A DNA stretch of 64,000 nt from an uncultured Candidatus Saccharibacteria bacterium (GTDB lineage: Bacteria > Patescibacteriota > Saccharimonadia > Saccharimonadales > Saccharimonadaceae): NCBI GenBank assembly GCA_963543945.1, contig CAUUCN010000001.1, positions 1,118-65,117 on the forward strand, read 5' to 3'. A program made the position numbers and the translations under genes. The notes beneath the pieces were generated by a model that saw nothing but the letters and a program-made list of their open reading frames with translations, had not been told where the DNA came from and did no database searches. Positions 2,306 to 56,333 of the stretch are shown here, piece by piece (the stretch's first letter is position 1; each line of letters begins with the position of its first letter).

Positions 2306-5179
2306 TTAGGGTTTTCTAGTGAAGACGCCTGGCTTTCCTGGTTCGTCGATACGAGCATATTCGATACCGTCTGGGGATGGAGTGGTCCCGAGCGCACCCA
2401 CGAGAGCAGTGCATCGATCAAAGATACCTTCGAATTTTGTAACTTTGGTTGTGACGAAGCTATCTGAGGCATATACAGTATTAAGACGGTTGCTATAGTC
2501 GAACATATGAGACATATCTTCGACACTACTGGTATCCCAGCCAGTAAGGTCAATTACCTCGAGATAACTAGACCCAAGAGTATTACTCATAGTTACTACG
2601 TTACTAACATTAAGTCCGGTGAGATCAATAGTACCATCTTGAGTCGTAGTGTAATAAAACATACTCTGCATATTTTTCACATTTGAGGTGTCAAAAGCGA
2701 TTTTGACTGGCGCAAAATCAAAAGTATCGTAAGTAAACATACCTTCCGTATTTTCCACTAATGAGGTGTCCAGTCCGGTGAGATCTAGTCGGGCAATACG
2801 GGTACCAAGTTCACTAAACATATAACCTAGGTCTGTTAATGAATGGGAATTGATTTTTGGGAAGACGATTTGGCCGAGGTAGTGATTCCCCTTGTAAAGA
2901 CCTCGAAGTGAGGCAAGGTATGGAGCCTCAACTGGATGATCCGGCCAAATGATTTGCTGGGCAGAGTACTTATTGTCATCAAGGGTAATTTCATCTGGAT
3001 TTGCTCCACTAAGCATCTCTTCCATGGTGGTGGCGCTATCAAAATTCATGTTGGAAATATCGAGTAATGGAACCTTGAAACCACCAAACATGTCTTTCAT
3101 ATTAGAGATATGATTGGTTTTAAAGGTAGTCGGAACGGTAGTATTTTGGCTAGAGGTGGTTCGATAAAACATATATGAAGCGTCGGTGATATTTTCAGAT
3201 TCAATATGGTGAATAAAATCTTTGATATCAAGCGATATAGTATTCGCAAACATGTGATTGGTGTCGGTAGCGCTAGTCAATTTGATTTTATCACCGTTTT
3301 CTAGCGTAGCAAGACGAATATTATCGGCGAGGAATGAACTAAAATCTGTAACAGCTGCGGTATTAAAGATATTTGGGAGAGTGATTTTTTGTACATTAGG
3401 AAGATTCTTGAACATACTGGCAATATTCTCTAGGGGGCCAGTGGAAATATTATGGAGATCTATTTCGGTAAGATAAGGGCAATCCTGAAACATACTCGAC
3501 ATATCAGTAATATGACTACCACCCATGGGTGCTACATTGAGGGTGAGACCGCTAATTTCGGATTTATAGAACATCTGAGAGAGATTTTCTGCCGAGATGA
3601 GGGATAGTTTTGGTAATTTTAGCGTAAAATAATAGGATCCACTTTCCTTAAAGAAGTTACTAAAGTTAGCTGTATTAGTGAAAGTGGCACTAGATAGATT
3701 GAACTCGTTAAGAGGTGCTTTTTGAAACATAGAGCCTGCGTCGGTAGATTTGGCAAAAGTGGCTTTAGTTAGAAGTATTTTTGAAGATTTGGTATTCATG
3801 AACATGGCGTGAGTGTCAGTGGTTTCACCAAATATTGCATTTGGAAGCTGGATTAGTGAAGAACTTTGGGTGTCCTTGAACATGTTTGCGGTGTTTTTAG
3901 TCTTAGCGAAGGTAGCATTATTTAGGATAGCCTGACCAATCCCACTACCCTCGAACATAGACTGAGTATCTTCGGCTTCGCCAATGATCCAATCGGAAAA
4001 ATTAACTTGATTTAATGATTTCGTATTGCGAAAAGCATAGGCGAGATTTTTGGCACGATTTACGATATTGCCGAATTTCTCAACGGTCTGGACTGTGGAA
4101 TTTTCGAAGATGGATTCAGCACTTTCGATCGGGGAATCTTTGAGATATTCAAAAAATTCTGAAGCTTCGAAGGAGCTGTTGTTATATGCGACAGTATTGT
4201 GGAATAGATGGTCAAGATTTTTGACTTTCTTAAAATTTAGCGTGGATTTACTGCGGCCGTCGGCAAAATTGAAGGAGACATGATAGTCGGTCCCGCCAAG
4301 TCCGGCATACAGATAGGAAAGATCTTCTGGGAAGATTAATTCTGTAGCATTACTCCAAATGCAGATATTATCCCAGCTGCTACGATAGCCACCGAGATAA
4401 ACTTCGGCGTCGGAATCTGGCAGGGAGATAACCGAGGTGCGTTCTTTGGTGATATTATCACTGCATTTATTTCTACCTACGGTAATATTAACCTCTGGCC
4501 ATAAATCGTTCGGGGTAGTGGTAAGCGGGTTATCGAGATAGCTGGCCTCGGTGATGCCGACGGCTTTTTTGATAGCCTTATTAATTTCGATACCATTAAC
4601 TAATTGGATGGAAGCTTGATCTTCGGCTAGGAGGGTAAAAATTAAATTGCGGTGATATTCACCAGGCTGTGCGGAAGATTCGAGTTCGAAGCCGAGGTTG
4701 AATTTGACAGTATCGGCAGCGGTAAGTGGATCTTTGACTTGCTTGATTTTGAGCGGGCTACTAAGGCTTGGGATTTGTTGGTAAATTTGATCGTCAGTGT
4801 CTTTAATATTATAGCCGTACTGGTTATGCATGTCTCTAGAAAGTACATAATTAGATCCGTAGACAGAAGGGATAGAATAGTCGTTCTTAGGGTCGTTGCT
4901 CACTAGTGAACTATCCTCGCTGTCGCTACTAAAAAGTAATTTGTAACCTAATGGGCTATTAGTATTGACGGTAATATTGATGGATTTAGAAAACTCCATT
5001 CTACTTCCAGTCGAAAAATCGGTTTCGACTTTAACCTCGCCAGGCATGCCTAGTGAGGCAGTCGAGGCATGGGTGCATTCGTAATGTAGCAAGCAAAATA
5101 AAGTGCTGACTAAAAAGATTGATAATATATTAAAAACCGACCTACCACTGATGGTATGTCTAATTCCTCGCTTTGACAC
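2306..5179 (-). CDS. BspA-like leucine-rich-repeat surface protein (DUF285-type repeats)
   Basis: 957-aa ORF with N-terminal hydrophobic anchor/signal. Long series of MF-containing ~23-25-aa repeats (TDMSSMFQDCPYLTEIDL, IASMFKNLPNVQKITL). Tandem paralog of 1..2138. Confidence 0.85.
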   Translation of the reverse strand: MSKRGIRHTISGRSVFNILSIFLVSTLFCLLHYECTHASTASLGMPGEVKVETDFSTGSRMEFSKSINITVNTNSPLGYKLLFSSDSEDSSLVSNDPKNDYSIPSVYGSNYVLSRDMHNQYGYNIKDTDDQIYQQIPSLSSPLKIKQVKDPLTAADTVKFNLGFELESSAQPGEYHRNLIFTLLAEDQASIQLVNGIEINKAIKKAVGITEASYLDNPLTTTPNDLWPEVNITVGRNKCSDNITKERTSVISLPDSDAEVYLGGYRSSWDNICIWSNATELIFPEDLSYLYAGLGGTDYHVSFNFADGRSKSTLNFKKVKNLDHLFHNTVAYNNSSFEASEFFEYLKDSPIESAESIFENSTVQTVEKFGNIVNRAKNLAYAFRNTKSLNQVNFSDWIIGEAEDTQSMFEGSGIGQAILNNATFAKTKNTANMFKDTQSSSLIQLPNAIFGETTDTHAMFMNTKSSKILLTKATFAKSTDAGSMFQKAPLNEFNLSSATFTNTANFSNFFKESGSYYFTLKLPKLSLISAENLSQMFYKSEISGLTLNVAPMGGSHITDMSSMFQDCPYLTEIDLHNISTGPLENIASMFKNLPNVQKITLPNIFNTAAVTDFSSFLADNIRLATLENGDKIKLTSATDTNHMFANTISLDIKDFIHHIESENITDASYMFYRTTSSQNTTVPTTFKTNHISNMKDMFGGFKVPLLDISNMNFDSATTMEEMLSGANPDEITLDDNKYSAQQIIWPDHPVEAPYLASLRGLYKGNHYLGQIVFPKINSHSLTDLGYMFSELGTRIARLDLTGLDTSLVENTEGMFTYDTFDFAPVKIAFDTSNVKNMQSMFYYTTTQDGTIDLTGLNVSNVVTMSNTLGSSYLEVIDLTGWDTSSVEDMSHMFDYSNRLNTVYASDSFVTTKVTKFEGIFDRCTALVGALGTTPSPDGIEYARIDEPGKPGVFTRKP

Positions 5180-33665: not shown

Positions 33666-34499
33666 TTAAGTGAAATCTTTTTCTCTATCCGTGAAAATGT
33701 TGGGGAAATACTCTAGGATAAACTTTAGATCAACGATGAAATAATTGGTTGGATTGGCATATTTAGATAACTTGTACCTGTTGATTAATTTACCGCCATT
33801 AACATAGATAGCAGCAAGAATTAGCCATCCTACTGGGGTTTCGTATTCTATGTTCTCGCAAAAAGATTTTTGAACTAATTGCTCAATATCACCGCCAGCT
33901 GGTAAAAAGCTTCTCCGAATAAACTGATCGAAGGTGTAGTCTTGATAATGGAATTCACGTTCAATTTCACTGAGCTTGACGTTATGGATGAAATCGTGTA
34001 GCGATACAGCTTTTGGTAGATCAGCCAGAGTTTTGCCAGAATCTAGACTAAGGTAACGACAGTAGTTAAGACGTATCCAGGGTTTAACGTACTCACTAGG
34101 CTCGATACCAATACTTGACCATTTGTCAGGCGAAGAACTGACGATATCGTCGACAGTGCTTTTAATCGAAAAAAGTTTTATTTTATCGATAAACATGGTG
34201 GGAATAATCCTACTGATTATACTGCGAATTTGTTCTGAGGTAATACCAAGAGTATAAAAGAAGCTGAGTATCTTAAATAGGTTATCTGGATACTCTGCAT
34301 TACTCAAGATATAATCTTCAGATAATTCAAAGGCGGTTTGTACGGAAACGCCATTAATGATCAAGTCATTAATCTCGTCGAGCGAACAAGTCTCGAGATT
34401 ATAATGACGAGCAATTTGGTCCATATCGGCATCTTGTGAATGCAGATATTGTAAATCTACCTTGTCTGATTCGATCTTTTCTTTTCTAAAAATGTTCAT
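33666..34499 (-). CDS. Family B1 hypothetical protein
   Basis: 277 aa; SLDEINDLIINGVSVQTAFELSEDYILSNAEYPDNLFKILSFFY nearly identical to B2; shared C-terminal blocks with B2 and B3. Confidence 0.7.
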   Translation of the reverse strand: MNIFRKEKIESDKVDLQYLHSQDADMDQIARHYNLETCSLDEINDLIINGVSVQTAFELSEDYILSNAEYPDNLFKILSFFYTLGITSEQIRSIISRIIPTMFIDKIKLFSIKSTVDDIVSSSPDKWSSIGIEPSEYVKPWIRLNYCRYLSLDSGKTLADLPKAVSLHDFIHNVKLSEIEREFHYQDYTFDQFIRRSFLPAGGDIEQLVQKSFCENIEYETPVGWLILAAIYVNGGKLINRYKLSKYANPTNYFIVDLKFILEYFPNIFTDREKDFT

Positions 34500-34504
34500 G
34501 ATAC

Positions 34505-34591
34505 CCCCTTTTTAAAGAGCTCGCAAAAATCTGCGCGAGCTAAACTCAAGTTTAACGAATATATTATGGCATTAAGGTTATATTTTGTCAA
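34505..34591. repeat. Promoter plus 5' UTR module, copy 1 (copy 2 at 37273..37361)
   Basis: ttaaagagctcgcaaaaat(c/t)tgcgcgagctaaac..gagtttaacg..tatattatggca....ttgtcaa shared by both copies; includes leader hairpin AGCTCGC/GCGAGCT (34518-34541). Confidence 0.8.
34563..34591 (-). promoter_or_regulatory. Sigma70-type promoter TTGACA-17-CATAAT for B1
   Basis: Exact 17-nt spacer; the motif CTCAAGTGCAAC lies 20 nt upstream of -35 (34612-34623). Confidence 0.6.
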
Positions 34592-35811: not shown

Positions 35812-36903
35812 TTAGTGAGCTGATTCATTCTCCATGAATTCTTTGGCGAAAATATAGTCTTGCCCAGTATAGTGTGATGGGTCGCCACACTCAAGCAACA
35901 TTTTTCGATTGATTAATTTGCTGCCAGAATCACTGAGATAAGCTAAGACAAGCCAATCGATTGGGTCTTCAGGCTGCATTCTTGCGTAATTAGCTTCTTT
36001 GGCTAATTCTTCAATGTCACCCCAAGCTGGCAGGTAATTACATTTAATGAACTGCTTCATGGTTAGGCCACGGTAATTGACTTTGCTCATAATAAACGGA
36101 AGTCCAGTATGGTGAATGAAATCACGTATAGAGACGGGATCTGGTAGATTAGCTAGAGTTTTCCCAGGCTCTATGTCGAGATAATCATCACAGTGAAGAA
36201 GAATCCAAGGTTTGGTGTATTCTCTAGGTTTAATGCCAATACTAATCCACCTACCAGATGAACCCTCAATGATGTCGTCGATAAGATCAGTAATGTATAG
36301 CAGATTTGATCCATCAATGAATCGCACTGGAATGATTTTGTTAATCATTTTACGAATTTGTCCCGAATCAATACCATGAGCGTAAAAGAAATTGAGTATC
36401 TTAAATAGAGTGTCTGGATACTCCGCACTACTCAAGATGTAATCTTCGGATAAATCAAACGTAGTTTGGACAGAAACACCATTAATGATCAGGTCGTTAA
36501 TCTCATCGAGCGAATAAGGCTCGAAGCCATCGTGAATTACGATTTCATCCATATCCGCACCTAAGGAATACAGGCGGTGTAGGTTTATCTTGCTGCATTC
36601 TACGGGTATTGAGCTGGCAATTTGATTAATATCTAAATGCGCGCCGGCATTTTGGAGTGCTTCAAACTGCTCAATAACGTCTAATGGATGTAAAACTTGA
36701 ACGATTTCTCCCATATCAACACCTGCATCATGTATTTTAGGCCAATACTTGGCCAGAATTTTGTAGGCTGAACTCAATTTTTTCTCATTTTCCGATTCCT
36801 GAATGCATTTTTTTAAGACTGGGAAAATATCATACCAGAATTTTTGATTAAATTTTTCACGGGTGGCTACTACCAATGCTTTTAAGATGCCAATAATATT
36901 CAT
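35812..36903 (-). CDS. Family B2 hypothetical protein
   Basis: Start ATG 36903 (AGGAGGGG Shine-Dalgarno); helical G(A/V)D(M/I)..I repeats; core ~85% nt identity with B1. Confidence 0.7.
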   Translation of the reverse strand: MNIIGILKALVVATREKFNQKFWYDIFPVLKKCIQESENEKKLSSAYKILAKYWPKIHDAGVDMGEIVQVLHPLDVIEQFEALQNAGAHLDINQIASSIPVECSKINLHRLYSLGADMDEIVIHDGFEPYSLDEINDLIINGVSVQTTFDLSEDYILSSAEYPDTLFKILNFFYAHGIDSGQIRKMINKIIPVRFIDGSNLLYITDLIDDIIEGSSGRWISIGIKPREYTKPWILLHCDDYLDIEPGKTLANLPDPVSIRDFIHHTGLPFIMSKVNYRGLTMKQFIKCNYLPAWGDIEELAKEANYARMQPEDPIDWLVLAYLSDSGSKLINRKMLLECGDPSHYTGQDYIFAKEFMENESAH

Positions 36904-37272: not shown

Positions 37273-37361
37273 CCCTTTCTTTTAAAGAGCTCGCAAAAAT
37301 TTGCGCGAGCTAAACATGAGTTTAACGGCTATATTATGGCAGAGTATATGGGGTTTGTCAA
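37273..37361. repeat. Promoter plus 5' UTR module, copy 2
   Basis: See 34505..34591; the leader hairpin here is at 37288-37311. Confidence 0.8.
37333..37361 (-). promoter_or_regulatory. Sigma70-type promoter TTGACA-17-CATAAT for the DUF1653-B2 operon
   Basis: Exact 17-nt spacer; inverted copy of CTCAAGTGCAAC at 37365-37376. Confidence 0.6.
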
Positions 37362-42072: not shown

Positions 42073-43104
42073 CTAGGCGCCAAGCCGATTAAGATTGGTG
42101 GTTTCAATGCGTGGAATGGAAGTAGATTCTGGTGAAATATCCGTGGTGTCAATTTCGGTTTCAGCAAATTGATCGCAAAGTTTAACCAGATATCGACCAC
42201 GCTTCAGGGTGGTGACCCACTTTTCTGGAATACTTTTGAGTCCATAATGAATACCAGCGAGCGAACCAGTGAGAGCGCCGACCGTATCGGTGTCATCGCC
42301 GAGATTAACCGCAGTAAGTACGGCATCTTGGAAGTTGTCAGTGGTCAGAAACGACCAAAGCGCTGCTTCTAGCGTATCGACTACATAGGCGCGAGAAGAG
42401 ATGAACCCCTTGGGATAGCGATAAATCTGATTTTTCAGAATTCGACTATATAGACTACGCTCTTCCGAATCAAACATACTGTAATCGTCTAGCTGGGTTT
42501 TGCGATAAGCTTCCTTGGGATTATCACCGCCTAATAAGTGGCAAACGAAATTAGTGTAAATCAGACAACCCAGCACGCTAATTGGGTGAGCGTGGGTGAG
42601 GGATGAAATATTTTTCACTAATTCGTAACGTTTTTCACCGGTGATTTGGTTGTTGTGACAAACAAAAGCTACTGGCAAGATGCGCATGAGTGATCCATTA
42701 CCGTTATTGGCGTAATGGCTCATACCACATTTGACGGGGTGTCCGCCAGCGAGATAAGTCTCAATCGCGCGTTTGCAGGTGCCGCCAATATCAAAAGTGA
42801 GCTTAGTAGCGGTGAATTCGTCTTGCAAATACCACTTGACAAAATTCTCCATAATGTCGTGATAATGGAAGCGTTTTTGGTCAATCAATGACTGCATCAG
42901 GCAGATGGTCATAGATGTATCGTCAGACCAAGTACCGGCAGGTTGATGATGGGTACCGACAGATAACATTTCGGTGACCGGCATGAGTTCTAGAAAATTT
43001 CGATTCAAAAACTCAATGGGCACCCCTAATGCGTCGCCAATAGCTAAGCCGATAAGGCCAGAACGAACTGCTTGCTTTATATCCTTTTTCTCTAAATGTA
43101 CCAT
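42073..43104 (-). CDS. ADP-ribosylglycohydrolase family protein
   Basis: GLAIGDALGVPIEF, WSDDTSMT and GDDTDTVGALTGSLAG motifs; AGGAGGAG Shine-Dalgarno. Confidence 0.85.
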   Translation of the reverse strand: MVHLEKKDIKQAVRSGLIGLAIGDALGVPIEFLNRNFLELMPVTEMLSVGTHHQPAGTWSDDTSMTICLMQSLIDQKRFHYHDIMENFVKWYLQDEFTATKLTFDIGGTCKRAIETYLAGGHPVKCGMSHYANNGNGSLMRILPVAFVCHNNQITGEKRYELVKNISSLTHAHPISVLGCLIYTNFVCHLLGGDNPKEAYRKTQLDDYSMFDSEERSLYSRILKNQIYRYPKGFISSRAYVVDTLEAALWSFLTTDNFQDAVLTAVNLGDDTDTVGALTGSLAGIHYGLKSIPEKWVTTLKRGRYLVKLCDQFAETEIDTTDISPESTSIPRIETTNLNRLGA

Positions 43105-43206
43105 AGTATCTCCTCCTATCGATTGGGTGATGATGCGGGATTATTTGTGAAATGGGACCAATTTTGGGTCAGATTTTTCACGATTTTTCCGCACCGAGAT
43201 TTATAT

Positions 43207-43235
43207 ATTATAACAATTTTAGAGTGTTTTGTCAA
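43207..43235 (-). promoter_or_regulatory. Sigma70-type promoter TTGACA-17-TATAAT for the glycohydrolase gene
   Basis: Minus-strand read: TTGACAaaacactctaaaattgtTATAAT. Confidence 0.65.
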
Positions 43236-43240
43236 TGAAG

Positions 43241-43274
43241 AAAAAATCCCCGAAGATAGGCTCCGGGGATTTTA
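43241..43274. terminator. Hairpin terminator, copy 1 of a duplicated 37-nt unit
   Basis: aaaaaatccccgaagataggctccggggattttaatg; near-identical copy at 43406..43440. Confidence 0.65.
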
Positions 43275-43345
43275 ATGAAGAGCTTCGACGTGTGTATTTT
43301 CTTGAATGAATAATCGTTTTAGTATTTTTGGTGTATAATTTTAAT

Positions 43346-43397
43346 ATCGAAGTCTCTGCACGGGGTGTAATGCTCCTACCGCAGGGGCTTCCTTTTT
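43346..43397 (+). ncRNA. Candidate small RNA, copy 1 (~52 nt: own -10 box, long hairpin, U-tail)
   Basis: TATAAT at 43334-43339; GAAGTCTCTGC...GCAGGGGCTTC 11-bp stem plus T5; paralog at 46546..46598 with compensatory stem changes. Confidence 0.5.
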
Positions 43398-43405
43398 ATA
43401 TACGA

Positions 43406-43440
43406 TAAAAAATCCCCGAAGATAAGCTTCGGGGATTTTA
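43406..43440. terminator. Hairpin terminator, copy 2 of the duplicated unit
   Basis: ATCCCCGAAG-ataag-CTTCGGGGAT, 10-bp stem; also serves the convergent HD gene. Confidence 0.7.
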
Positions 43441-43457
43441 ATGTGAGGAATTTAATT

Positions 43458-44045
43458 TTAGAGATTTATTGTGATAATACCTCCTAGCTCATCTATAAGA
43501 GTCGCAAGGTGATGCTTGAGTTCTATCGGCACCGGTTTGTTTCTGATGAGACTAAAAACGGTGCGATAATACCAGAGAATATCTTGTTTAGAAGCATTGA
43601 AGCGCTGCCAAATTTCATCGCCAAACTTATCGTAATCTTTTAGAATGTCAGTCAGGTTATGTATTTTATCGGCGGTTGCGACAATGTAGGCCTCAATGTA
43701 GTAGGAATTGCCGAGGCGCTTCAGGTAACTTTCTTTACGTTCTTTCCAGGGAAGTTTGGGCTGACCGGCCGTTTTAGGTTCCGAAACATCTTTGACGATG
43801 TCGGTAATTTCATCACCAAAATCGCGACGCATGTCAGCCTCAGAATAGACAGCTGGATTGACATCTTCAAGTATATCGTGTAGGATCCCAGCGACAATTG
43901 TTGCTTCGTCGTTGGTATATTGACTAATAATCATGCCGACGGCGACAGGGTGGGAAATATATGGAAAATCGGTTCCCTTGCGGTTTTGACCTTGATGGGC
44001 CTTGGCGGCAATTTTAAGTGCGAGATTAATTTTGTCAGTAAACAT
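43458..44045 (-). CDS. RelA/SpoT-type HD-domain hydrolase (small alarmone hydrolase-like)
   Basis: Start ATG 44045; AHQGQNRKGTDFPYISHPVAVGMI...AGILHDILEDV is the (p)ppGpp-hydrolase HD signature; no synthetase domain. Confidence 0.8.
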   Translation of the reverse strand: MFTDKINLALKIAAKAHQGQNRKGTDFPYISHPVAVGMIISQYTNDEATIVAGILHDILEDVNPAVYSEADMRRDFGDEITDIVKDVSEPKTAGQPKLPWKERKESYLKRLGNSYYIEAYIVATADKIHNLTDILKDYDKFGDEIWQRFNASKQDILWYYRTVFSLIRNKPVPIELKHHLATLIDELGGIITINL

Positions 44046-44170
44046 AGATTCACCTAACCTTTCGTAATGTGTGCGGGTGACTGTTTGGTTAAAATTCCTC
44101 AAATTTTAAGGTGCAATAAATTCACCTCTCTCTCGAGAGGTGAAAGTTGTGTAGCAAATTTTTTCGTAAT

Positions 44171-44791
44171 CTAAATATCTTTTACCTCGGGTTCACGATA
44201 CCAGATGATGCCAGATTTTTCAGAGACAGGGATTTCTAAACTTTGCTCTTTAAAATCCTTATAGGTCGAAACGAACCATTTAGTAGGTGATCCAGTGAAA
44301 GTAATAGAAGTGGCAGTAAGCCATGCTAAAAGACCGAACTCATCTGCGTCGGGCATTACACCGATAAAGCGCGTCTTATCACATATGTCTTGGTATGACG
44401 GCCGGTCGGCCTCTTGGATTTTTTGCCAACCGTTGTATTCGAGGATTTCACCCCAGTGTTTGGCATCGAAGCGATGTTCTCCGGGTTTGCGCGGCCCTGG
44501 TTTAGGTAATTTAGGTGAACTACCGCAGTGTTTTTTCATCATCCAGGCCACATAACTAGTACTACGCCGAATGACGAAGCCATTAGAATCAGTAATTAGG
44601 GTGTAAAAATTACCGTCGGATTCCGGCCATTTGGCAAAATCGGGATCAGCGTAAGGATATTCCTCGGCGCCAGTCTCCATGATGAAACGATAGATGTGAC
44701 GATAGATTATGCGAATAATCCGTTTAGGCTGCCAAGCAGCGCAAGATTCTCTTGCGAAAAAATTTGCTACTTTAATCTTAAATGTACTCAT
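44171..44791 (-). CDS. Hypothetical protein
   Basis: 206-aa ORF with GAAGGAGGGG Shine-Dalgarno; no confident family. Confidence 0.6.
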   Translation of the reverse strand: MSTFKIKVANFFARESCAAWQPKRIIRIIYRHIYRFIMETGAEEYPYADPDFAKWPESDGNFYTLITDSNGFVIRRSTSYVAWMMKKHCGSSPKLPKPGPRKPGEHRFDAKHWGEILEYNGWQKIQEADRPSYQDICDKTRFIGVMPDADEFGLLAWLTATSITFTGSPTKWFVSTYKDFKEQSLEIPVSEKSGIIWYREPEVKDI

Positions 44792-44835
44792 GATTCCCCT
44801 CCTTCATGCTGTGTGGGAAAATACCCAATATTTAT

Positions 44836-44864
44836 ATTATACAATGAAGAGTGGGGCGTGTCAA
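44836..44864 (-). promoter_or_regulatory. Sigma70-type promoter TTGACA-17-TATAAT
   Basis: Minus-strand read: TTGACAcgccccactcttcattgTATAAT. Confidence 0.65.
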
Positions 44865-44946
44865 TTTTTGACCCCTGAGTTAACACAGTATATAAATATT
44901 TCGATTAAAATTTAAAGATTCGTAAATATGGTATATTGTAATTAAT

Positions 44947-45603
44947 ATGAATTTAAGGGAAGCTAAAACCTATATCTATATTGATGTTAGTAACATCCGT
45001 CACGCCTGCCTTTGGAGCTGCGGTTTTGTTCTTGATTTTATTAAATTATATAACTATCTTAAAGAGAAATATCCGAATGTTCAGGAAATTCGTTATTATG
45101 AAGGGATATCTTCTAGTGATAGTAAGAAAATGGAACATTTTCGATTTTTGAGTGAAAAAGTTGGATATAAGATTTGCTCACTTTCTAGAAAAAGCTATAT
45201 TGAACCACCAAAGTACGAAAAATATAGATGCGCGAATTGCGGGTCTCTAAATAATATAAAAGTACTTTCGAAAAATGTGAAATTAAAATCGAATATTGAT
45301 GTTTATTTGACATCGGATCTGCTGGAGTGTGTTGCAAGATCAAAGGACCCAATTAATATCATAATCCTTTCTTGTGATGGAGATTATGCCGAAGCAATTA
45401 AGGCAACTCTTCGATTGAGCCCCGATTCTTGTGTAACGGTTTTAGCTACACCAGTAACAGAAATAAATAATTGCCTATCAGTTAGATTAAAACAACTTAG
45501 TCGTGAGCTTGATCGAAGTAATTATAAGTTGTCAAATATAAATAATATTAGAGATTATGTTGCTCAGTCTTTTGAGGGCGGTAAGAATAAATTGAAAAAA
45601 TAA
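44947..45603 (+). CDS. NYN/LabA-like domain protein with an inserted zinc-ribbon-like CxxC pair
   Basis: IYIDVSNIRHA ... IIILSCDGDYAEAIK (NYN acidic motifs); YRCANCGS; TATATT-9 nt-ATG start. Confidence 0.65.
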   Translation: MNLREAKTYIYIDVSNIRHACLWSCGFVLDFIKLYNYLKEKYPNVQEIRYYEGISSSDSKKMEHFRFLSEKVGYKICSLSRKSYIEPPKYEKYRCANCGSLNNIKVLSKNVKLKSNIDVYLTSDLLECVARSKDPINIIILSCDGDYAEAIKATLRLSPDSCVTVLATPVTEINNCLSVRLKQLSRELDRSNYKLSNINNIRDYVAQSFEGGKNKLKK

Positions 45604-45814
45604 TTAAGGATATTTTTAGAATCGAGCAACCCGCCATTTCTGGCGGGTTCTCATGAAGATAGCACCGAAGTGGTATCTCCGACGTTGGAGTTTCTTACTC
45701 CGATGTCTTTATTCTAGCATATATTGAAGAAAAACTCAATCCGAGTTCTAGTTGCATTTTTATAGTGTTATACTCGACGTAAAGCGGAGTAGAGGCTTAT
45801 GATATAATAAAAAT

Positions 45815-46354
45815 ATGGCTCATACTTTGTGTGCTAATAAACATAGTATGTGGAACGGCGATGGAAAAGTTTGCGTCGATGCTTATTCTGTTGAACTTAT
45901 TAAAAAAATATCAGAAGAAAACCCTGATAAGAAATTTGGCGATAAAGATAACGACTATTCCCTATTGGTTGATATTTATGATTCTTGCCCAGAAAAAGAA
46001 CCGGATATATGGCGATGCACGAAATGTCTAAGTCTAGTGATTTTCTTTTCTGATAATGAATATGGAATAGAAAAATGCTATGGTTATGTAGTTGATGAAA
46101 CGGAAAATTTGCCAGATAAAACGTTATATTCAAAATGGGAGGAGTATTTTGTTGAAAATAACGACGCCTTCGAAGAGCATCATGAGAATCTAAAAAATCA
46201 AGGTCTAACGCCATACGAATCATTTGAGAGATTCCATAAGGAATCAGATAAGTTAAACTTCGCATATGTAAGTGACGATAAGCTGAAAATTGTTGTAACA
46301 GATAATAGTTATAATCCAATTCGCCTTTATAAATTAAAATGGAAGACAGAATAA
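45815..46354 (+). CDS. Hypothetical Cys/His-containing protein
   Basis: 179-aa ORF; TATAAT-6 nt-ATG; C..H..C and RCTKC motifs. Confidence 0.6.
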   Translation: MAHTLCANKHSMWNGDGKVCVDAYSVELIKKISEENPDKKFGDKDNDYSLLVDIYDSCPEKEPDIWRCTKCLSLVIFFSDNEYGIEKCYGYVVDETENLPDKTLYSKWEEYFVENNDAFEEHHENLKNQGLTPYESFERFHKESDKLNFAYVSDDKLKIVVTDNSYNPIRLYKLKWKTE

Positions 46355-46477
46355 AGCGTTGATGTTGGAGTTGCAGTCAGTATGGGGGAAGATGCATTGA
46401 TGAATATGCTTATAAGGTCGCCAATAATCTTTGATATTGATTTTTAGATATCGGTAGTGTATTATTGAATTACAGCG

Positions 46478-46511
46478 CCTTGGTCTGGATTCGTTCCCGC
46501 CAAGGTTTTTT
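46478..46511 (+). terminator. Intrinsic terminator
   Basis: CCTTGG...CCAAGG stem followed by TTTTTT. Confidence 0.6.
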
Positions 46512-46545
46512 GATTTAAGATAATTTTATGTGATATAGTGAAAAT

Positions 46546-46598
46546 ATCGAAGTTCTTGCACGGCGCCGAAGGTACCTACCGCAGGAGCTTCTTTTTTT
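46546..46598 (+). ncRNA. Candidate small RNA, copy 2
   Basis: TGaTATAGT at 46531-46539; GAAGTTCTTGC...GCAGGAGCTTC stem plus T7. Conserved AATATCGAAGT, TGCACGG and CCTACCGCAGG blocks; the inner 11 nt differ from copy 1. Confidence 0.5.
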
Positions 46599-46759
46599 GC
46601 ATAAAATAACGATCGTGATACATATAAAAACACAAAGTCAGTTCTCTAGATAGTTTTGGTTAACCGTTTCTGTATATTTTCAACAATTCATTCGCGAGAT
46701 AGCCGAAAGCGTGTGAGTGGTATAATCATAAATAGGATACTAGAAAAGGAATAACTTTT

Positions 46760-47221
46760 ATGGAAAACGCTCCACGAATTAATGGTGAAAAAACGATGAA
46801 TATGGCTACACAACCCAATAGCCCAGATCGAACTGCTAATAAAACCTCAATCGTGAACCGACCATATATCAGAAAAGAAACCATCAATACCGTCGTTGAT
46901 CGTGATGGAAATGATAGCATGAGGATGGAAGAAATGCCAGCTGGAAAATCAGAAGAGCAAATTGAGAGTGAAAGAGTTGGTCGTGTTAAAATTAATGACG
47001 AAATGCAGGCTAGAATGAAGGTGTACTGGGCTGATAAACGAGCAAATGAGCAAAAACAACGTGAAGAACAAGAACGAGTTCGAAAAGAAAAGGCGATGAC
47101 TGAAGCCGAGCATCAAAGGATTCTGCAAGAACAAAGAGAAAAAGTTCAAAATGCATATCATCGAAATACTGAAAATGAACTTAATGAAGAGCAAGATAAT
47201 GAAATGGAAATGGAGATGTAG
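46760..47221 (+). CDS. Highly charged coiled-coil-like hypothetical protein
   Basis: 153-aa ORF; AAAAGGAA Shine-Dalgarno; E/K/R/Q-rich. Confidence 0.6.
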   Translation: MENAPRINGEKTMNMATQPNSPDRTANKTSIVNRPYIRKETINTVVDRDGNDSMRMEEMPAGKSEEQIESERVGRVKINDEMQARMKVYWADKRANEQKQREEQERVRKEKAMTEAEHQRILQEQREKVQNAYHRNTENELNEEQDNEMEMEM

Positions 47222-47224
47222 AAT

Positions 47225-47551
47225 ATGAAAACATTTCGATTGTCTTCAAATGAAATCAAAATTTTAACGGATATGAAGGGTGGCTGTATTGCATCAGATA
47301 GAATTACTGTGGATGGGCAAAAAGTTGGCTACGCTTATCGAGAAGATCCAGATAAGAATTTTTCAAATGATAGTGGATGGAGATTTCTTGCTGGGGATGA
47401 AAGCGAGGAATATCTGAATAATCCTAACAATTTTGACGTATTTGAAATAAGCACTATCTGTAATTACGATCCGAATATTCTAGATATTTTAGACGGGAAA
47501 ATTGGCGAGTCTTATATTAGAGATAGTAATACATTTAAATTAGATTTTTAA
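47225..47551 (+). CDS. DUF2185 / Imm33-like immunity-type protein
   Basis: NDSGWRFLAGDESEEYLNNPNNFDVFEISTICNYDPNILDIL matches my recollection of the DUF2185 signature (DSGW.f..G.E). Confidence 0.6.
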   Translation: MKTFRLSSNEIKILTDMKGGCIASDRITVDGQKVGYAYREDPDKNFSNDSGWRFLAGDESEEYLNNPNNFDVFEISTICNYDPNILDILDGKIGESYIRDSNTFKLDF

Positions 47552-47934: not shown

Positions 47935-48267
47935 ATGAATATAATTAATTTGACGCCCCACACTGTGAACATCTGCACTGAGGATGGAGATATCGAGTGC
48001 TCGTTCAAATCTGAAGGTGTCGCTCGCGCAAGCCAGGTGGCAGTACCTTTCGGTGACGTCAATGGAATCGAGTTGGTCGAGATGCGTTTCGGCCCTACCG
48101 TTGATCTTCCTGACCCTGAGGCAGGTACCGTACTTATTGTATCTGCGATCACCGCAAGTGCCGCTAAGGCGGAAGGTCGTTCTACTGATGACCTGGTGCT
48201 TACAGCGGATACTGTCCGTGACAAGGATGGCCGTATCGTCGGCTGCAGGCGCTTCGCCCGCGTATAA
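47935..48267 (+). CDS. Family E2 hypothetical protein (high-GC copy)
   Basis: Start ATG 47935 (GGAGAGGAG Shine-Dalgarno); MNIINLTPHTV...TVLIVSAITASAAKAEGRSTDDLVLTADTVRDKDGRIVGCRRFA aligns with 38006..38347. Confidence 0.7.
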   Translation: MNIINLTPHTVNICTEDGDIECSFKSEGVARASQVAVPFGDVNGIELVEMRFGPTVDLPDPEAGTVLIVSAITASAAKAEGRSTDDLVLTADTVRDKDGRIVGCRRFARV

Positions 48268-48298
48268 GGGACCATCCCCCCTACCTACGTTATTTTAT

Positions 48299-48332
48299 AA
48301 CCCCGGTCTCTATGGCCGGGGTTTCCATTTTT
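48299..48332 (+). terminator. Intrinsic terminator
   Basis: AACCCCGG/CCGGGGTT stem followed by a T-rich tract. Confidence 0.7.
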
Positions 48333-48345
48333 ATCTTAAAGCATA

Positions 48346-48354
48346 TGCTATAAT
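48346..48354 (+). promoter_or_regulatory. Extended -10 promoter TGcTATAAT, 7 nt before ATG 48362 (leaderless-type)
   Basis: aTGcTATAATatgtaatATG. Confidence 0.55.
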
Positions 48355-48361
48355 ATGTAAT

Positions 48362-49747
48362 ATGAAAGACCCCAATGTGGTAAAAAATGAATCCGAAAAA
48401 GACTCTGATTATGATGCCGATTGGGGTGCTGGTTGGGGTAAAGTAGCGGCGTTAGCTAACAATCCAAATCTTAGTGAAGCATCATCTAAGGAGAATCCAG
48501 AAGATTCCGATGAATATGAGGAATCTGATGACTATGATAACGAAGACGACTACGACGACTATGACGATTACGATAGTGAGGATGATGGTTATGATCGTGA
48601 TGAGGATGCTTATGGTGATTATGATGACGGCTATGATAACTATGATGGCGAAGACGATGATTATGATCATGGCGAGGATGCGTATGGTGATTATGACGAC
48701 GATTATGATGACTATGACGATGATGATGATTACAATAGCTACTATAATGGCGACAACGAGCGCCTAGAGGTAAAAGAAGACGAATTAAAAATTCGAGAAA
48801 TACCTCTACCGGAAAATATCTTAAAAAGATATGATTTTATCGAGAAGTTACCTAGTGGTATTGCTATAATGGGTGGTGTGGCAAGGAGTGTAGCACGCGA
48901 GATTTTGACTGGTGAAAAAGAGCCAATCAGGGATATTGATCTTGTGGAAATTACTGATAATGAAGACGAAAGCACAGTCGACCCAGAGCTTCTCGATGAA
49001 TTAGCACAAACTTATATGCCAGATGATTATGCATTTGGCCATGGAATCGGACTAGACACCTTAGAAGATTATTTCTCTACACGCGACTTCACTATTAATG
49101 AATGCCTTATTAAGGACGGTAAGCTTCTCGTGAGTGAGTTAGCGGAAAATGATTTTAAGGAAAATATTATCAGACCAACTTATTATGAAGCCCCATATGA
49201 CGGAGATAAACTGTCGGGACGGCTTTTCTTGAAAGCGATACTGATGCAGACCGTGATATCGCAAATTTCTGAATCCATACCGTTACTTGAGGATGTTCAT
49301 GTGAATTTTCAATATATTGGCGATTTTGATACGGCAGTATTTCTTAATAAGGCGATGAGTCGCGGGGTAGAAACAGCGGTAAAATTTACAGAGAATCTTG
49401 CTGAATGGGGTGTAGTATACCCAGAATTTGCTGGTAGGCCTATGGCGCTTGCGAAAGATTTACTTACTAATGCATACAATTTTAAATTTAGACCATCTAC
49501 AGATGAAAGATTTCTAGAACCAGAAGAAGGTCGCGACATGAGCGGATTTTTTGTGCCAAAAGCTATGCAAGAATACCATTCATCCGATCCAGCAATAGCC
49601 CGAGCTATAGATGAGTATGATAGTGGCCCAGATTACAGTAATGATGATAATGATGGTGATAATAACGGTGAGCCAGTTTCGGGATATTATACACAGAAAG
49701 ATTACGATGAGATTAATTCGAGTGTGGATAGTCGTGACATAGAATAA
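48362..49747 (+). CDS. Class-II (CCA-adding / poly(A) polymerase-type) nucleotidyltransferase-like protein with N-terminal Asp/Tyr-rich tract
   Basis: Start ATG 48362; the longer ORF-track ORF reads through the upstream gene. GGVARSVAREILTGEKEPIRDIDL and EDYFSTRDFTINECL head-domain motifs; aa 46-132 are almost only D/E/Y/G. Confidence 0.65.
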   Translation: MKDPNVVKNESEKDSDYDADWGAGWGKVAALANNPNLSEASSKENPEDSDEYEESDDYDNEDDYDDYDDYDSEDDGYDRDEDAYGDYDDGYDNYDGEDDDYDHGEDAYGDYDDDYDDYDDDDDYNSYYNGDNERLEVKEDELKIREIPLPENILKRYDFIEKLPSGIAIMGGVARSVAREILTGEKEPIRDIDLVEITDNEDESTVDPELLDELAQTYMPDDYAFGHGIGLDTLEDYFSTRDFTINECLIKDGKLLVSELAENDFKENIIRPTYYEAPYDGDKLSGRLFLKAILMQTVISQISESIPLLEDVHVNFQYIGDFDTAVFLNKAMSRGVETAVKFTENLAEWGVVYPEFAGRPMALAKDLLTNAYNFKFRPSTDERFLEPEEGRDMSGFFVPKAMQEYHSSDPAIARAIDEYDSGPDYSNDDNDGDNNGEPVSGYYTQKDYDEINSSVDSRDIE

Positions 49748-50971: not shown

Positions 50972-51123
50972 TATACTTGAATTAACATCACTTAATAAAA
51001 GGAGAATCTATCTATAAATATTATACCAGAACAAATCCTGAATTTTTAAAACCCCTGCGGGTAAATGTGAAAAGCCTCCTAGTATGCTTTGCATATAGTC
51101 GTCTGATTCGTCGAAATAAAAAA

Positions 51124-51220
51124 GTATCGCTATGCTTCTTATTTTAATTTTTAAAACCTAAAATTATAGAACAAGTTCTAAATTTTAAATTTTAAAAATA
51201 AAAATAGAGTTCTTCGAACT
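51124..51220. repeat. ~97-nt AT-rich intergenic repeat, copy 1 (copy 2 at 56059..56155; 28-nt partial copy at 49746..49773)
   Basis: cttattttaatttttaaaac.taaaattatagaa.aa.ttctaaattttaa....ttaaaaataaaaatagagttc; contains palindrome TAGAAC-nn-GTTCTA and a terminator hairpin. Confidence 0.8.
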
Positions 51221-56014: not shown

Positions 56015-56058
56015 AGGCGTGTACTAGGGTACACGCGGCCACTCTTAAAAATAAAAAA

Positions 56059-56155
56059 ATATTGCTACGCTACTTATTTTAATTTTTAAAACTTAAAATT
56101 ATAGAATAAATTCTAAATTTTAAGCCTTAAAAATAAAAATAGAGTTCCAAGGAAC
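56059..56155. repeat. ~97-nt AT-rich intergenic repeat, copy 2
   Basis: See 51124..51220; ~88% identity by eye. Confidence 0.8.
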
Positions 56156-56170: not shown

Positions 56171-56270
56171 TCATCCGTGGAGCCGCGTGTGCAAAAGCAC
56201 ACTTGCACCACTTCTTCAAATTCTTTGAAAAGTAAACTTTTCACGAATTTTCATCCGTGGAGCCGCGTGT
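56168..56270. repeat. 23-nt direct repeat of the tRNA-Thr(UGU) 3' end plus trailer (56168-56190 and 56248-56270)
   Basis: tttcatccgtggagccgcgtgt occurs twice, 80 nt apart. The distal copy is preceded by a GTGTGC-tttt-GCACAC hairpin on the minus strand. Confidence 0.85.
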
Positions 56271-56333
56271 CGGCTCTGCCCCGACGACCTGCCGCTTACA
56301 AGGCGGCTGCTCTACTAGCTGAGCTAACGCGGC
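56258..56333 (-). tRNA. trnT: tRNA-Thr (anticodon TGT) with non-canonical D-loop and T-loop
   Basis: Hand fold: acceptor GCCGCGT/ACGCGGC, anticodon loop CTTGTAA, encoded CCA. The T-loop is GGCAGAG (not TTCRANY) and the D-loop AGCTAGTA lacks the GG pair. Confidence 0.7.

Follow-up and report, generated by a model that had tools for sequence, protein, structure and literature searches.

Two short units on the forward strand of the window (the whole stretch of 64,000 nucleotides analysed here) belong, judging from their sequences, to a family of genuine, conserved structured small RNA genes of Saccharibacteria. Most members of this family lie directly behind a gene for a small CdiA_C-like protein, a predicted nuclease toxin. 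It is proposed that the RNA acts as the antitoxin or immunity RNA of this toxin, in a way that resembles the type III systems although the fold of the toxin and the layout are new, a reading that we regard as about equally apt to hold or to fail. The two copies in the window would most likely be RNA antidotes that have been kept after the loss of their toxin genes. No description of the RNA, nor of an RNA partner for CdiA_C proteins, has been found in the searchable literature.

The window is a low-GC (41%) piece of bacterial chromosome, with genes that include those for arginine deiminase, ornithine carbamoyltransferase, DcuC, and GH97 and DUF285 proteins. A phage origin has been rejected, since there is no megablast match to phage records and no PHROG signal around the locus, and chromosomal genes are present.

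Two RNA units and the fold of their family

The original prediction described two copies of a promoter-plus-hairpin small RNA, and reading of the sequence finds both units where they had been placed (Table 1). A repeat search of the window returns a 73-nt pair (43325-43397 and 46525-46597) with 73% identity and a spacing of exactly 3200 nt, and the pattern TGCACGG-N11-CCTACCGCAGG has two sites in the window, both of them the RNA copies, where 0.01 would be expected by chance. On the + strand, both copies fold into the 11-bp stem and U-tail that had been announced, together with a 2/4-nt internal loop and an inner helix. The U-runs after the stems are CUUUUU in copy 1 and UUUUUUU in copy 2, which gives each unit the stable stem and immediate U-run of an intrinsic terminator. 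The fold leans on G-U pairs and is a property of the transcribed strand, because the reverse strand of either copy folds no better than shuffled sequences (z about -1).

Table 1. Coordinates of the RNA units and their flanking elements in the window, and of hairpins and RNA arrays at related loci (L numbers)
Feature	Position	Strand	Basis and details
Small RNA copy 1 (P2 type A1)	43346..43397	+	covariance model R1 66.1 bits, E 4e-16; fold -22.5 kcal/mol, z = -4.1; covariation
Copy 1 hairpin	43349-43391	+	P1 11 bp, internal loop AC/UACC, P2 GGGGUG/UGCUCC, triloop UAA
Copy 1 U-tail	43392-43397	+
Copy 1 -10 box (TG + TATAAT)	43332..43339	+	sequence; TATAAT at 43334-43339, TG directly before
Small RNA copy 2 (P2 type B)	46546..46598	+	R1 71.1 bits, E 1.5e-17; fold -19.8 kcal/mol, z = -3.1
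Copy 2 hairpin	46549-46591	+	P1 11 bp, internal loop AC/UACC, P2 GGCGCC/GGUACC with one C-A mismatch, triloop GAA
Copy 2 U-tail	46592-46598	+	sequence
Copy 2 promoter TTGATT-18-TATAGT, TG before -10 box	46510..46539	+	promoter scan; TG-A-TATAGT at 46531-46539
Hairpin + T-run directly 5' of copy 2	46475..46511	+	sequence; conserved with L099, where homology begins at this hairpin
Terminator-like hairpin unit 1	43241..43277		repeat search (copy of unit 2); terminator scan, - strand; L048 comparison
Terminator-like hairpin unit 2	43407..43443		repeat search; L048 sequence; occurs in toxin-bearing relatives too
Second-subfamily hairpin	L012 660-705
Second-subfamily hairpin	L146 1609-1655
Second-subfamily hairpin	L148 1652-1696
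Two RNAs of differing types behind one toxin gene	L063 2680-2804
Two RNAs of differing types behind one toxin gene	L034 3614-3738
Two RNAs of differing types behind one toxin gene	L087 4714-4828
Two RNAs of differing types behind one toxin gene	L008 about 3690-3785

The stems of the two copies had been said to differ at three positions that stay paired. Both partners have changed in only one of these pairs (C-G to U-A); the remaining two are wobble changes on a single side. Between the copies, the 11 inner nt that had been described as completely different are identical at 4 of 11 positions, and instead of forming a free loop they pair in both copies as a 6-bp helix under a triloop (GG-GGUG-UAA-UGCU-CC in copy 1 versus GG-CGCC-GAA-GGUA-CC in copy 2).

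An alignment of 35 distinct RNA sequences (A3) has as its consensus fold an outer helix P1 of 11 bp, an asymmetric internal loop (5'-AC / 5'-UACC), an inner helix P2 of 6 bp, a triloop and the U-tail, and it is because of this support that the variable inner segment is assigned to P2. In A3, 97.6% of the cells are paired and double changes are found in 12 of the 17 pairs; 0 of 500 shuffles reach these values, and slid controls are 43-56% paired. The covariance model R1 has exactly two matches in the window, with 71 and 66 bits, while ordinary terminators do not exceed 24 bits; family members score 66-72 bits.

A search of the whole window with Rfam 15 gave only 4 tRNA hits at or above the gathering threshold, neither hairpin being matched, and a permissive Rfam search of 43200-43480 left the hairpin there without a credible match, all scores lying far below the gathering scores of the families concerned. 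Other identities were tried and rejected: a small peptide (there is no conserved ORF, and AUG is confined to type A), an SRP RNA, a riboswitch or a CRISPR-repeat mimic (motifs absent, no regulated downstream gene, or no Rfam score), and mimicry of the tRNA-Ala anticodon loop (CUUGCAC), where the bases concerned form covarying pairs and U33 is missing from copy 1.

When 185,579 species genomes were scanned for the pattern of the two conserved blocks, at least 119 stretches were obtained. Among the matches listed, 81 (the two window copies included) reach into the outer stem, most of them continuing into a T-run; these confirmed RNAs come, again among the matches listed, almost all from Candidatus Saccharibacteria (Nanosynbacter and Nanosyncoccus, from oral and rumen MAGs), with a few copies in Coriobacteriia (one Slackia isolate, and Eggerthellaceae). 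The high-GC matches were discarded as coincidences inside coding sequence that failed the outer-stem test, and a viral pattern scan gave only high-GC chance hits. The genome scan, a protein-first scan of metagenomes and the covariance model together yield more than 100 RNA copies in genomes and metagenomes, with a fold supported by covariation; a covariance-model search for further copies had been the check suggested with the prediction. Two short IMG/VR contigs classed as viral (L152 and L153) carry an intact toxin gene and a canonical RNA, with 65 bits each.

The CdiA_C-like protein and its linkage to the RNA

Clustering of the flanking ORFs revealed that most loci hold, on the same strand and ending just 5' of the hairpin, an ORF of ~130 aa. 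Its product is a member of Pfam PF18451 (CdiA_C), with E values from 1e-8 to 1e-16, above the curated cut-off. The only significant PDB match of the AlphaFold model of the protein (pLDDT 93) is 4g6v_A (E 1.3e-6, TM 0.69), with tRNA-splicing endonucleases among the weak fold matches, and a catalytic signature formed by E22, D48, E57 and K59 (E, D, E-x-K) is invariant in the alignment. Both 4G6V and PF18451 represent the family of the CdiA-CT of B. pseudomallei 1026b. This last protein is a PD-(D/E)xK tRNase; it cleaves tRNA-Ala in the acceptor stem, and its active site is blocked by CdiI (PMC9990079; PMC9086364), and in this closest characterised relative the partner that neutralises the toxin is encoded directly downstream (PMC9086364). 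The sequence and the model suggest that the Saccharibacteria protein is likewise a small tRNA-nuclease-like toxin, or it could instead be a non-toxic nuclease.

The protein family comprises 1144 clusters at 50% identity, and the best 150 representatives of these 1144 are nearly all of 125-135 aa. The protein is encoded by a stand-alone ORF with its own start, and not as the C-terminal tip of a large CdiA exoprotein accompanied by CdiB. PADLOC gave no hit for it. In Nanosynbacter JCVI_44 (L048, reverse strand), only ~7 nt separate the toxin gene's own TGTATAAT box from the first in-frame ATG, and this sequence suggests that the toxin mRNA would be leaderless or have a very short leader.

A second subfamily of CdiA_C-like proteins of ~130 aa (~25% identical) is followed by a different, equally conserved hairpin, GAAAGyUCG..AGGCAGCGUUGCAACGCAGG..CGGrrCUUUC with a U-run, to which R1 gives only 12-14 bits. 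In L012, this hairpin is directly followed by a canonical type-A RNA.

The spacing between gene and RNA is strict: of the 54 unique loci where the RNA directly follows the toxin ORF, 51 have the start of the hairpin 15-16 nt past the stop codon. Because the DNA pattern had forced 18 nt to be identical, loci were collected again by protein, as a check free of this bias. The hairpin was present directly 3' of the stop codon in all 20 metagenome homologues of the toxin and in both IMG/VR homologues (22/22), and 19 of the 20 metagenome hairpins are canonical. Compensatory variants beyond the reach of the pattern include CGC...GCG in L131, L138 and L144, and an A-U first P2 pair in L127, whose loop is UCCC. 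The unpaired AC/UACC internal loop is nearly invariant across the family; since the pattern fixed 18 core nt as identical, its strict invariance is to be judged on the smaller protein-first set, which has loop variants in L127 (UCCC) and L021b (UAUC).

Among the matches listed, 106 R1 hits reach at least 50 bits. An intact toxin ORF lies within 620 nt upstream of 62 of these RNAs, a toxin gene interrupted by a stop precedes 4, and only the last ~30 toxin codons are left in front of 10; 21 are orphan RNAs with no trace of the toxin upstream, and in 9 the contig ends there. The association is consequently asymmetric, each toxin gene retrieved by protein having its RNA hairpin, while the RNA is often found without the toxin. 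No conserved protein partner has emerged from the neighbourhoods, as the genes around the modules vary in family, strand and distance and those downstream are variable or convergent. Some toxin-RNA modules sit alone between unrelated genes.

The inner helix follows the phylogeny of the toxin. P2 is GGGGUG-UAA-UGCUCC in 14/14 members of toxin clade 1, GGCGCC-GAA-GGUACC in 18/18 of clade 2 and GGGGCA-GUA-UGCUCC in 15/16 of clade 3, and the P1 variants and the AC/UACC loop are shared between clades. The window holds one RNA of the clade 1 type and one of the clade 2 type. The earlier idea that the inner segment determines specificity agrees with this distribution, which would fit a common docking motif combined with a discriminator helix; physical linkage alone would likewise make the RNA and toxin clades co-vary.

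Promoter, selection and history of the window copies

A logo of the 42 nt 5' of the hairpin displays a near-perfect TTGACA-17-TG-n-TATAAT, with 10 nt between the end of the -10 box and the hairpin and a conserved UAUC behind the box. The -35 box falls inside the last codons of the toxin (C-terminal I-D-I), where codon usage is biased toward the promoter consensus: GAC is used in 40 of 52 cases (77%) versus 29% elsewhere in the same genes, and ATT in 50 of 51 (98%) versus 55%. Of 54 toxin genes, 43 stop with TGA, which supplies the TG of the extended -10 element. In the window, the TATAAT and TGaTATAGT boxes end at an equal distance 5' of AATATCGAAGT in both copies, as had been noticed, and that of copy 1 coincides with the -10 position of the family logo. 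Copy 1 has no -35 match and the promoter scan called no promoter for it. The hairpin directly 5' of copy 2 probably insulates this unit from transcription arriving from upstream, and terminator-like unit 2 can be read as a two-way terminator that separates the copy 1 RNA from the convergent HD_4 gene (43458-44102, - strand).

In the tandem arrays L063/L034 and L087, a second RNA of another type comes after the terminator of the first, with a TGATATAAT or TGGTATAAT of its own, and array units mostly carry their own -10 boxes. Such mixed arrays resemble those of orphan immunity genes behind polymorphic toxin loci.

The RNA has been conserved to a much greater extent than the silent sites of the adjacent gene. 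For protein-first loci with ~54% protein identity, the 4-fold sites are 0.29 identical, which means saturation, and the RNA 0.75; at ~79% protein identity the values are 0.36 and 0.94, respectively, and the full set agrees. The RNA sequence thus appears to be under purifying selection. The sequences support a stand-alone structured RNA driven by its own promoter and not merely a duplicated terminator, the alternative against which the original prediction was to be judged.

The history of copy 1 can be read from its comparison with L048. Collinearity of the two sequences breaks off after 43237 and resumes at 43343. In place of the 470-nt toxin gene of L048, the window has a 105-nt segment (43238-43342), which contains a copy of the downstream terminator (unit 1) and a new TGTATAAT at the correct distance; other orphans carry replacement -10 boxes too. 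The two bracketing terminators proposed earlier are real (95% identical in the repeat search), and copy 1, which they had made look like an inserted module, does sit in a replaced segment. The TTTTTGGTGTATAATTTTAAT-RNA block of copy 1, from the -10 box to the U-tail, shows a single substitution across five species-level genomes, in L021 and just 5' of the hairpin; around it, the upstream intergenic spacer diverges, and the downstream DNA is unrelated in two of the five. Copy 2 shares with the toxin-bearing loci only 46531-46641, a homology that starts at the toxin stop codon TGA / -10 box of those loci, and for this reason the deletion of a toxin gene at the same locus can be claimed for copy 1 only. 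As tblastn detects no toxin-like ORF anywhere in the window, both copies are orphans.

Several genes around the two RNAs (42073-47551) are antidote-like: an ADP-ribosylglycohydrolase (42073-43104, -), the HD_4 domain gene, which resembles a small alarmone hydrolase, NYN (44947-45603, +) and Imm33 (47225-47551, +). This part of the window may represent an immunity or antitoxin island.

Proposed function, alternatives and known systems

An RNA antidote is the most economical reading of these observations, because the toxin always occurs with the RNA, the RNA can stand alone, there is no protein partner, and the RNA is set for over-expression. In its full form, the proposal is that a single ~50-nt hairpin, with its promoter in the last codons of the toxin, neutralises a stand-alone CdiA-CT-type PD-(D/E)xK tRNase by binding it directly and in a clade-specific manner, perhaps as a pseudo-substrate similar to a tRNA acceptor stem, and that the ultrasmall epibiotic Saccharibacteria collect orphan immunity RNAs of this undescribed antidote class. 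This version is offered tentatively, as somewhat more apt to fail in one of its parts than to hold in all of them.

According to this proposal, each unit would be a gene for an RNA of ~50-55 nt, transcribed from its own sigma-70-type promoter and ending at its own hairpin and U-tail, and, with a strong promoter situated in the 3' end of the toxin gene, the RNA would be made in excess. By analogy with the type III systems, direct binding to the nuclease would use the conserved loop and flanking pairs as a common docking site and the clade-specific P2 to discriminate between toxins. Once bound, the RNA would keep the nuclease from acting, possibly by presenting a helix similar to a tRNA acceptor stem as a pseudo-substrate. 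Imitation of this stem by the long helix and its 3' U-overhang is speculation by analogy, based only on the known substrate of the 1026b enzyme (PMC9086364). The word decoy, one of several functions suggested at the outset, comes close to this antidote and possible pseudo-substrate, while the antisense, kissing-loop and guide functions suggested with it are not supported, the variable nucleotides being base-paired according to the covariation, with only a 3-nt loop left. The orphan antidotes A1 and B, each with a predicted working -10 box, would have been retained after deletion of the toxin gene, and could protect the cell against re-acquired or incoming toxins of the two clades.

The strict gene-RNA linkage with a clade-specific P2 would also be compatible with the RNA being a working partner of the nuclease and not its inhibitor, that is, a processed substrate, an activator or scaffold, or the targeting component of an RNP. 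PD-(D/E)xK enzymes include RNA-structure-specific nucleases, and the tRNA-splicing endonucleases among the weak fold matches point in the same direction. However, orphan RNAs persist, conserved, without the protein, which fits an antidote better than a cofactor; the 3-nt loop and the fully paired stems leave no guide segment, and the closest characterised relative is a toxin neutralised by its downstream-encoded partner (PMC9086364). We consider a working partner unlikely.

A hairpin with a U-tail behind a gene is also simply a terminator, which counts against the antidote. In this case, the hairpin would only be the terminator or 3'-end stabiliser of the toxin mRNA on a mobile cassette, and the orphans functionless, decaying leftovers, an explanation that we hold to be distinctly unlikely even though several observations agree with it: the stem and U-run lie 15-16 nt past the stop codon, 3' remnants of the toxin precede 10 copies, and the module is found in variable contexts. 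Terminators require pairing, not a particular sequence, whereas the unpaired loop and P2 are conserved here while synonymous sites are saturated. Furthermore, a consensus promoter points into the hairpin and its -35 box is maintained by codon bias, the second units of the arrays follow a terminator and mostly have -10 boxes of their own, and the orphans show new -10 boxes at an equal distance, with one substitution, outside the hairpin, in five species-level genomes. Ordinary terminators also score no more than 24 bits, against 66-72 bits for the family.

Action by base pairing, with the variable segment as an antisense or kissing-loop seed for the toxin mRNA or other targets, is very improbable. 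The inner segment does differ between copies and clades, and one-mismatch complements of the type-A 11-mer are in slight excess in the window (4 non-self versus 0.73 expected), but the nucleotides that vary are paired, with compensatory changes, and the loop has 3 nt. The RNA and the toxin gene are on the same strand, duplex energies of the RNA with its cognate toxin mRNA are no better than those of shuffled RNAs (mean z -0.4, 14 loci), and a search of the window for targets of the 11-mers, one of the checks proposed earlier, gave no exact complement besides self matches. Last, a DNA-level element, either a recombination site such as the attC of integrons or a miniature mobile repeat with a fold formed in single-stranded DNA, is hardly credible: cassette-like behaviour (an ORF with an imperfect hairpin in many contexts) and sharp homology breakpoints at the unit ends would agree with it, but the G-U pairs tie the fold to the transcribed strand, the U-tail is conserved and the promoter positioned, inspection of the sequences reveals no RYYYAAC/GTTRRRY-type core sites, and no integrase is a recurrent neighbour.

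The antidote that we favour can be compared with several known systems. Type III antitoxins (ToxIN, CptIN, TenpIN) are tandem direct repeats of 34-47 nt, processed by the toxin, that lie upstream of a ToxN-like toxin gene with a terminator in between. The modules described here share with them a ribonuclease toxin (predicted in our case), an adjacent structured small RNA as the proposed direct-binding antidote, no protein antitoxin, and an arrangement of terminator and promoter that would give an excess of RNA. They differ in the fold of the toxin, which is PD-(D/E)xK (CdiA_C) and not of the ToxN/AbiQ, CptN or TenpN type, in having one ~50-nt hairpin downstream with its own promoter and no upstream repeat array, and in the existence of orphan RNA genes and mixed arrays of RNA types. 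With the CdiA-CT/CdiI pair (1026b, 4G6V, PF18451), they have in common a homologous nuclease domain with the same E/D/(D/E)xK signature, the position of the putative antidote immediately downstream, and orphan antidotes and mixed-specificity arrays. In contrast, the toxin here is a stand-alone domain of ~130 aa and not the tip of a large secreted CdiA, an RNA gene stands in place of the cdiI protein gene, and the hosts are Saccharibacteria or Coriobacteriia instead of Proteobacteria.

The element very probably does terminate transcription, as it has, like intrinsic terminators, a GC-containing stem and then a U-run right behind a gene. Unlike them, it holds a 17-bp stem in two helices, a sequence-conserved internal loop, a clade-specific P2 and its own promoter, can occur with no gene in front of it, and exceeds the scores of ordinary terminators by more than 40 bits. 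Terminator-embedded aptamers such as the HMP-PP thiS riboswitch also place a conserved recognition motif in a terminator hairpin of ~50 nt, but the family described here is associated with the upstream gene, has no controlled gene downstream (copy 1 faces a convergent gene) and no Rfam match.

If the RNA is an antidote, RNA antitoxins would reach beyond the ToxN-like families into the large world of PD-(D/E)xK / CdiA-CT toxins, and an immunity role usually carried out by a protein would be replaceable by an RNA of 50 nt. Saccharibacteria (candidate phyla radiation), for which, to our knowledge, very few non-coding RNAs have been reported, would also gain a first family of functional small RNAs. 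Other bacteria collect orphan immunity proteins; orphan RNAs with such a role would alter the annotation of "intergenic terminators" in reduced genomes. The module is small (about 0.5 kb), has at least three natural specificity variants and can be directly tested in E. coli, offering a compact model of specific RNA-protein recognition.

Other features of the window were recorded in passing. An ORF of 587 aa (47984-49747, +), with no Pfam or PHROG hit, contains a long and very acidic stretch rich in Asp, Tyr and Glu that derives from 9-nt periodic repeats (48388-48745). At 56261-56333 (-), Rfam finds a tRNA (52.7 bits) with an odd T-arm that is not reported by ARAGORN. A 99-nt AT-rich repeat (51114-51212 and 56049-56147, 90% identical) adjoins this site and the tRNA-Thr/Tyr pair, and may be an attachment-site duplication. 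Finally, two repeat pairs with spacings of 2.1-2.8 kb, one of 264 nt (34201-34464 and 36329-36592, 75%) and one of 62 nt (34510-34571 and 37280-37341, 90%), suggest the local duplication of a gene together with its terminator.
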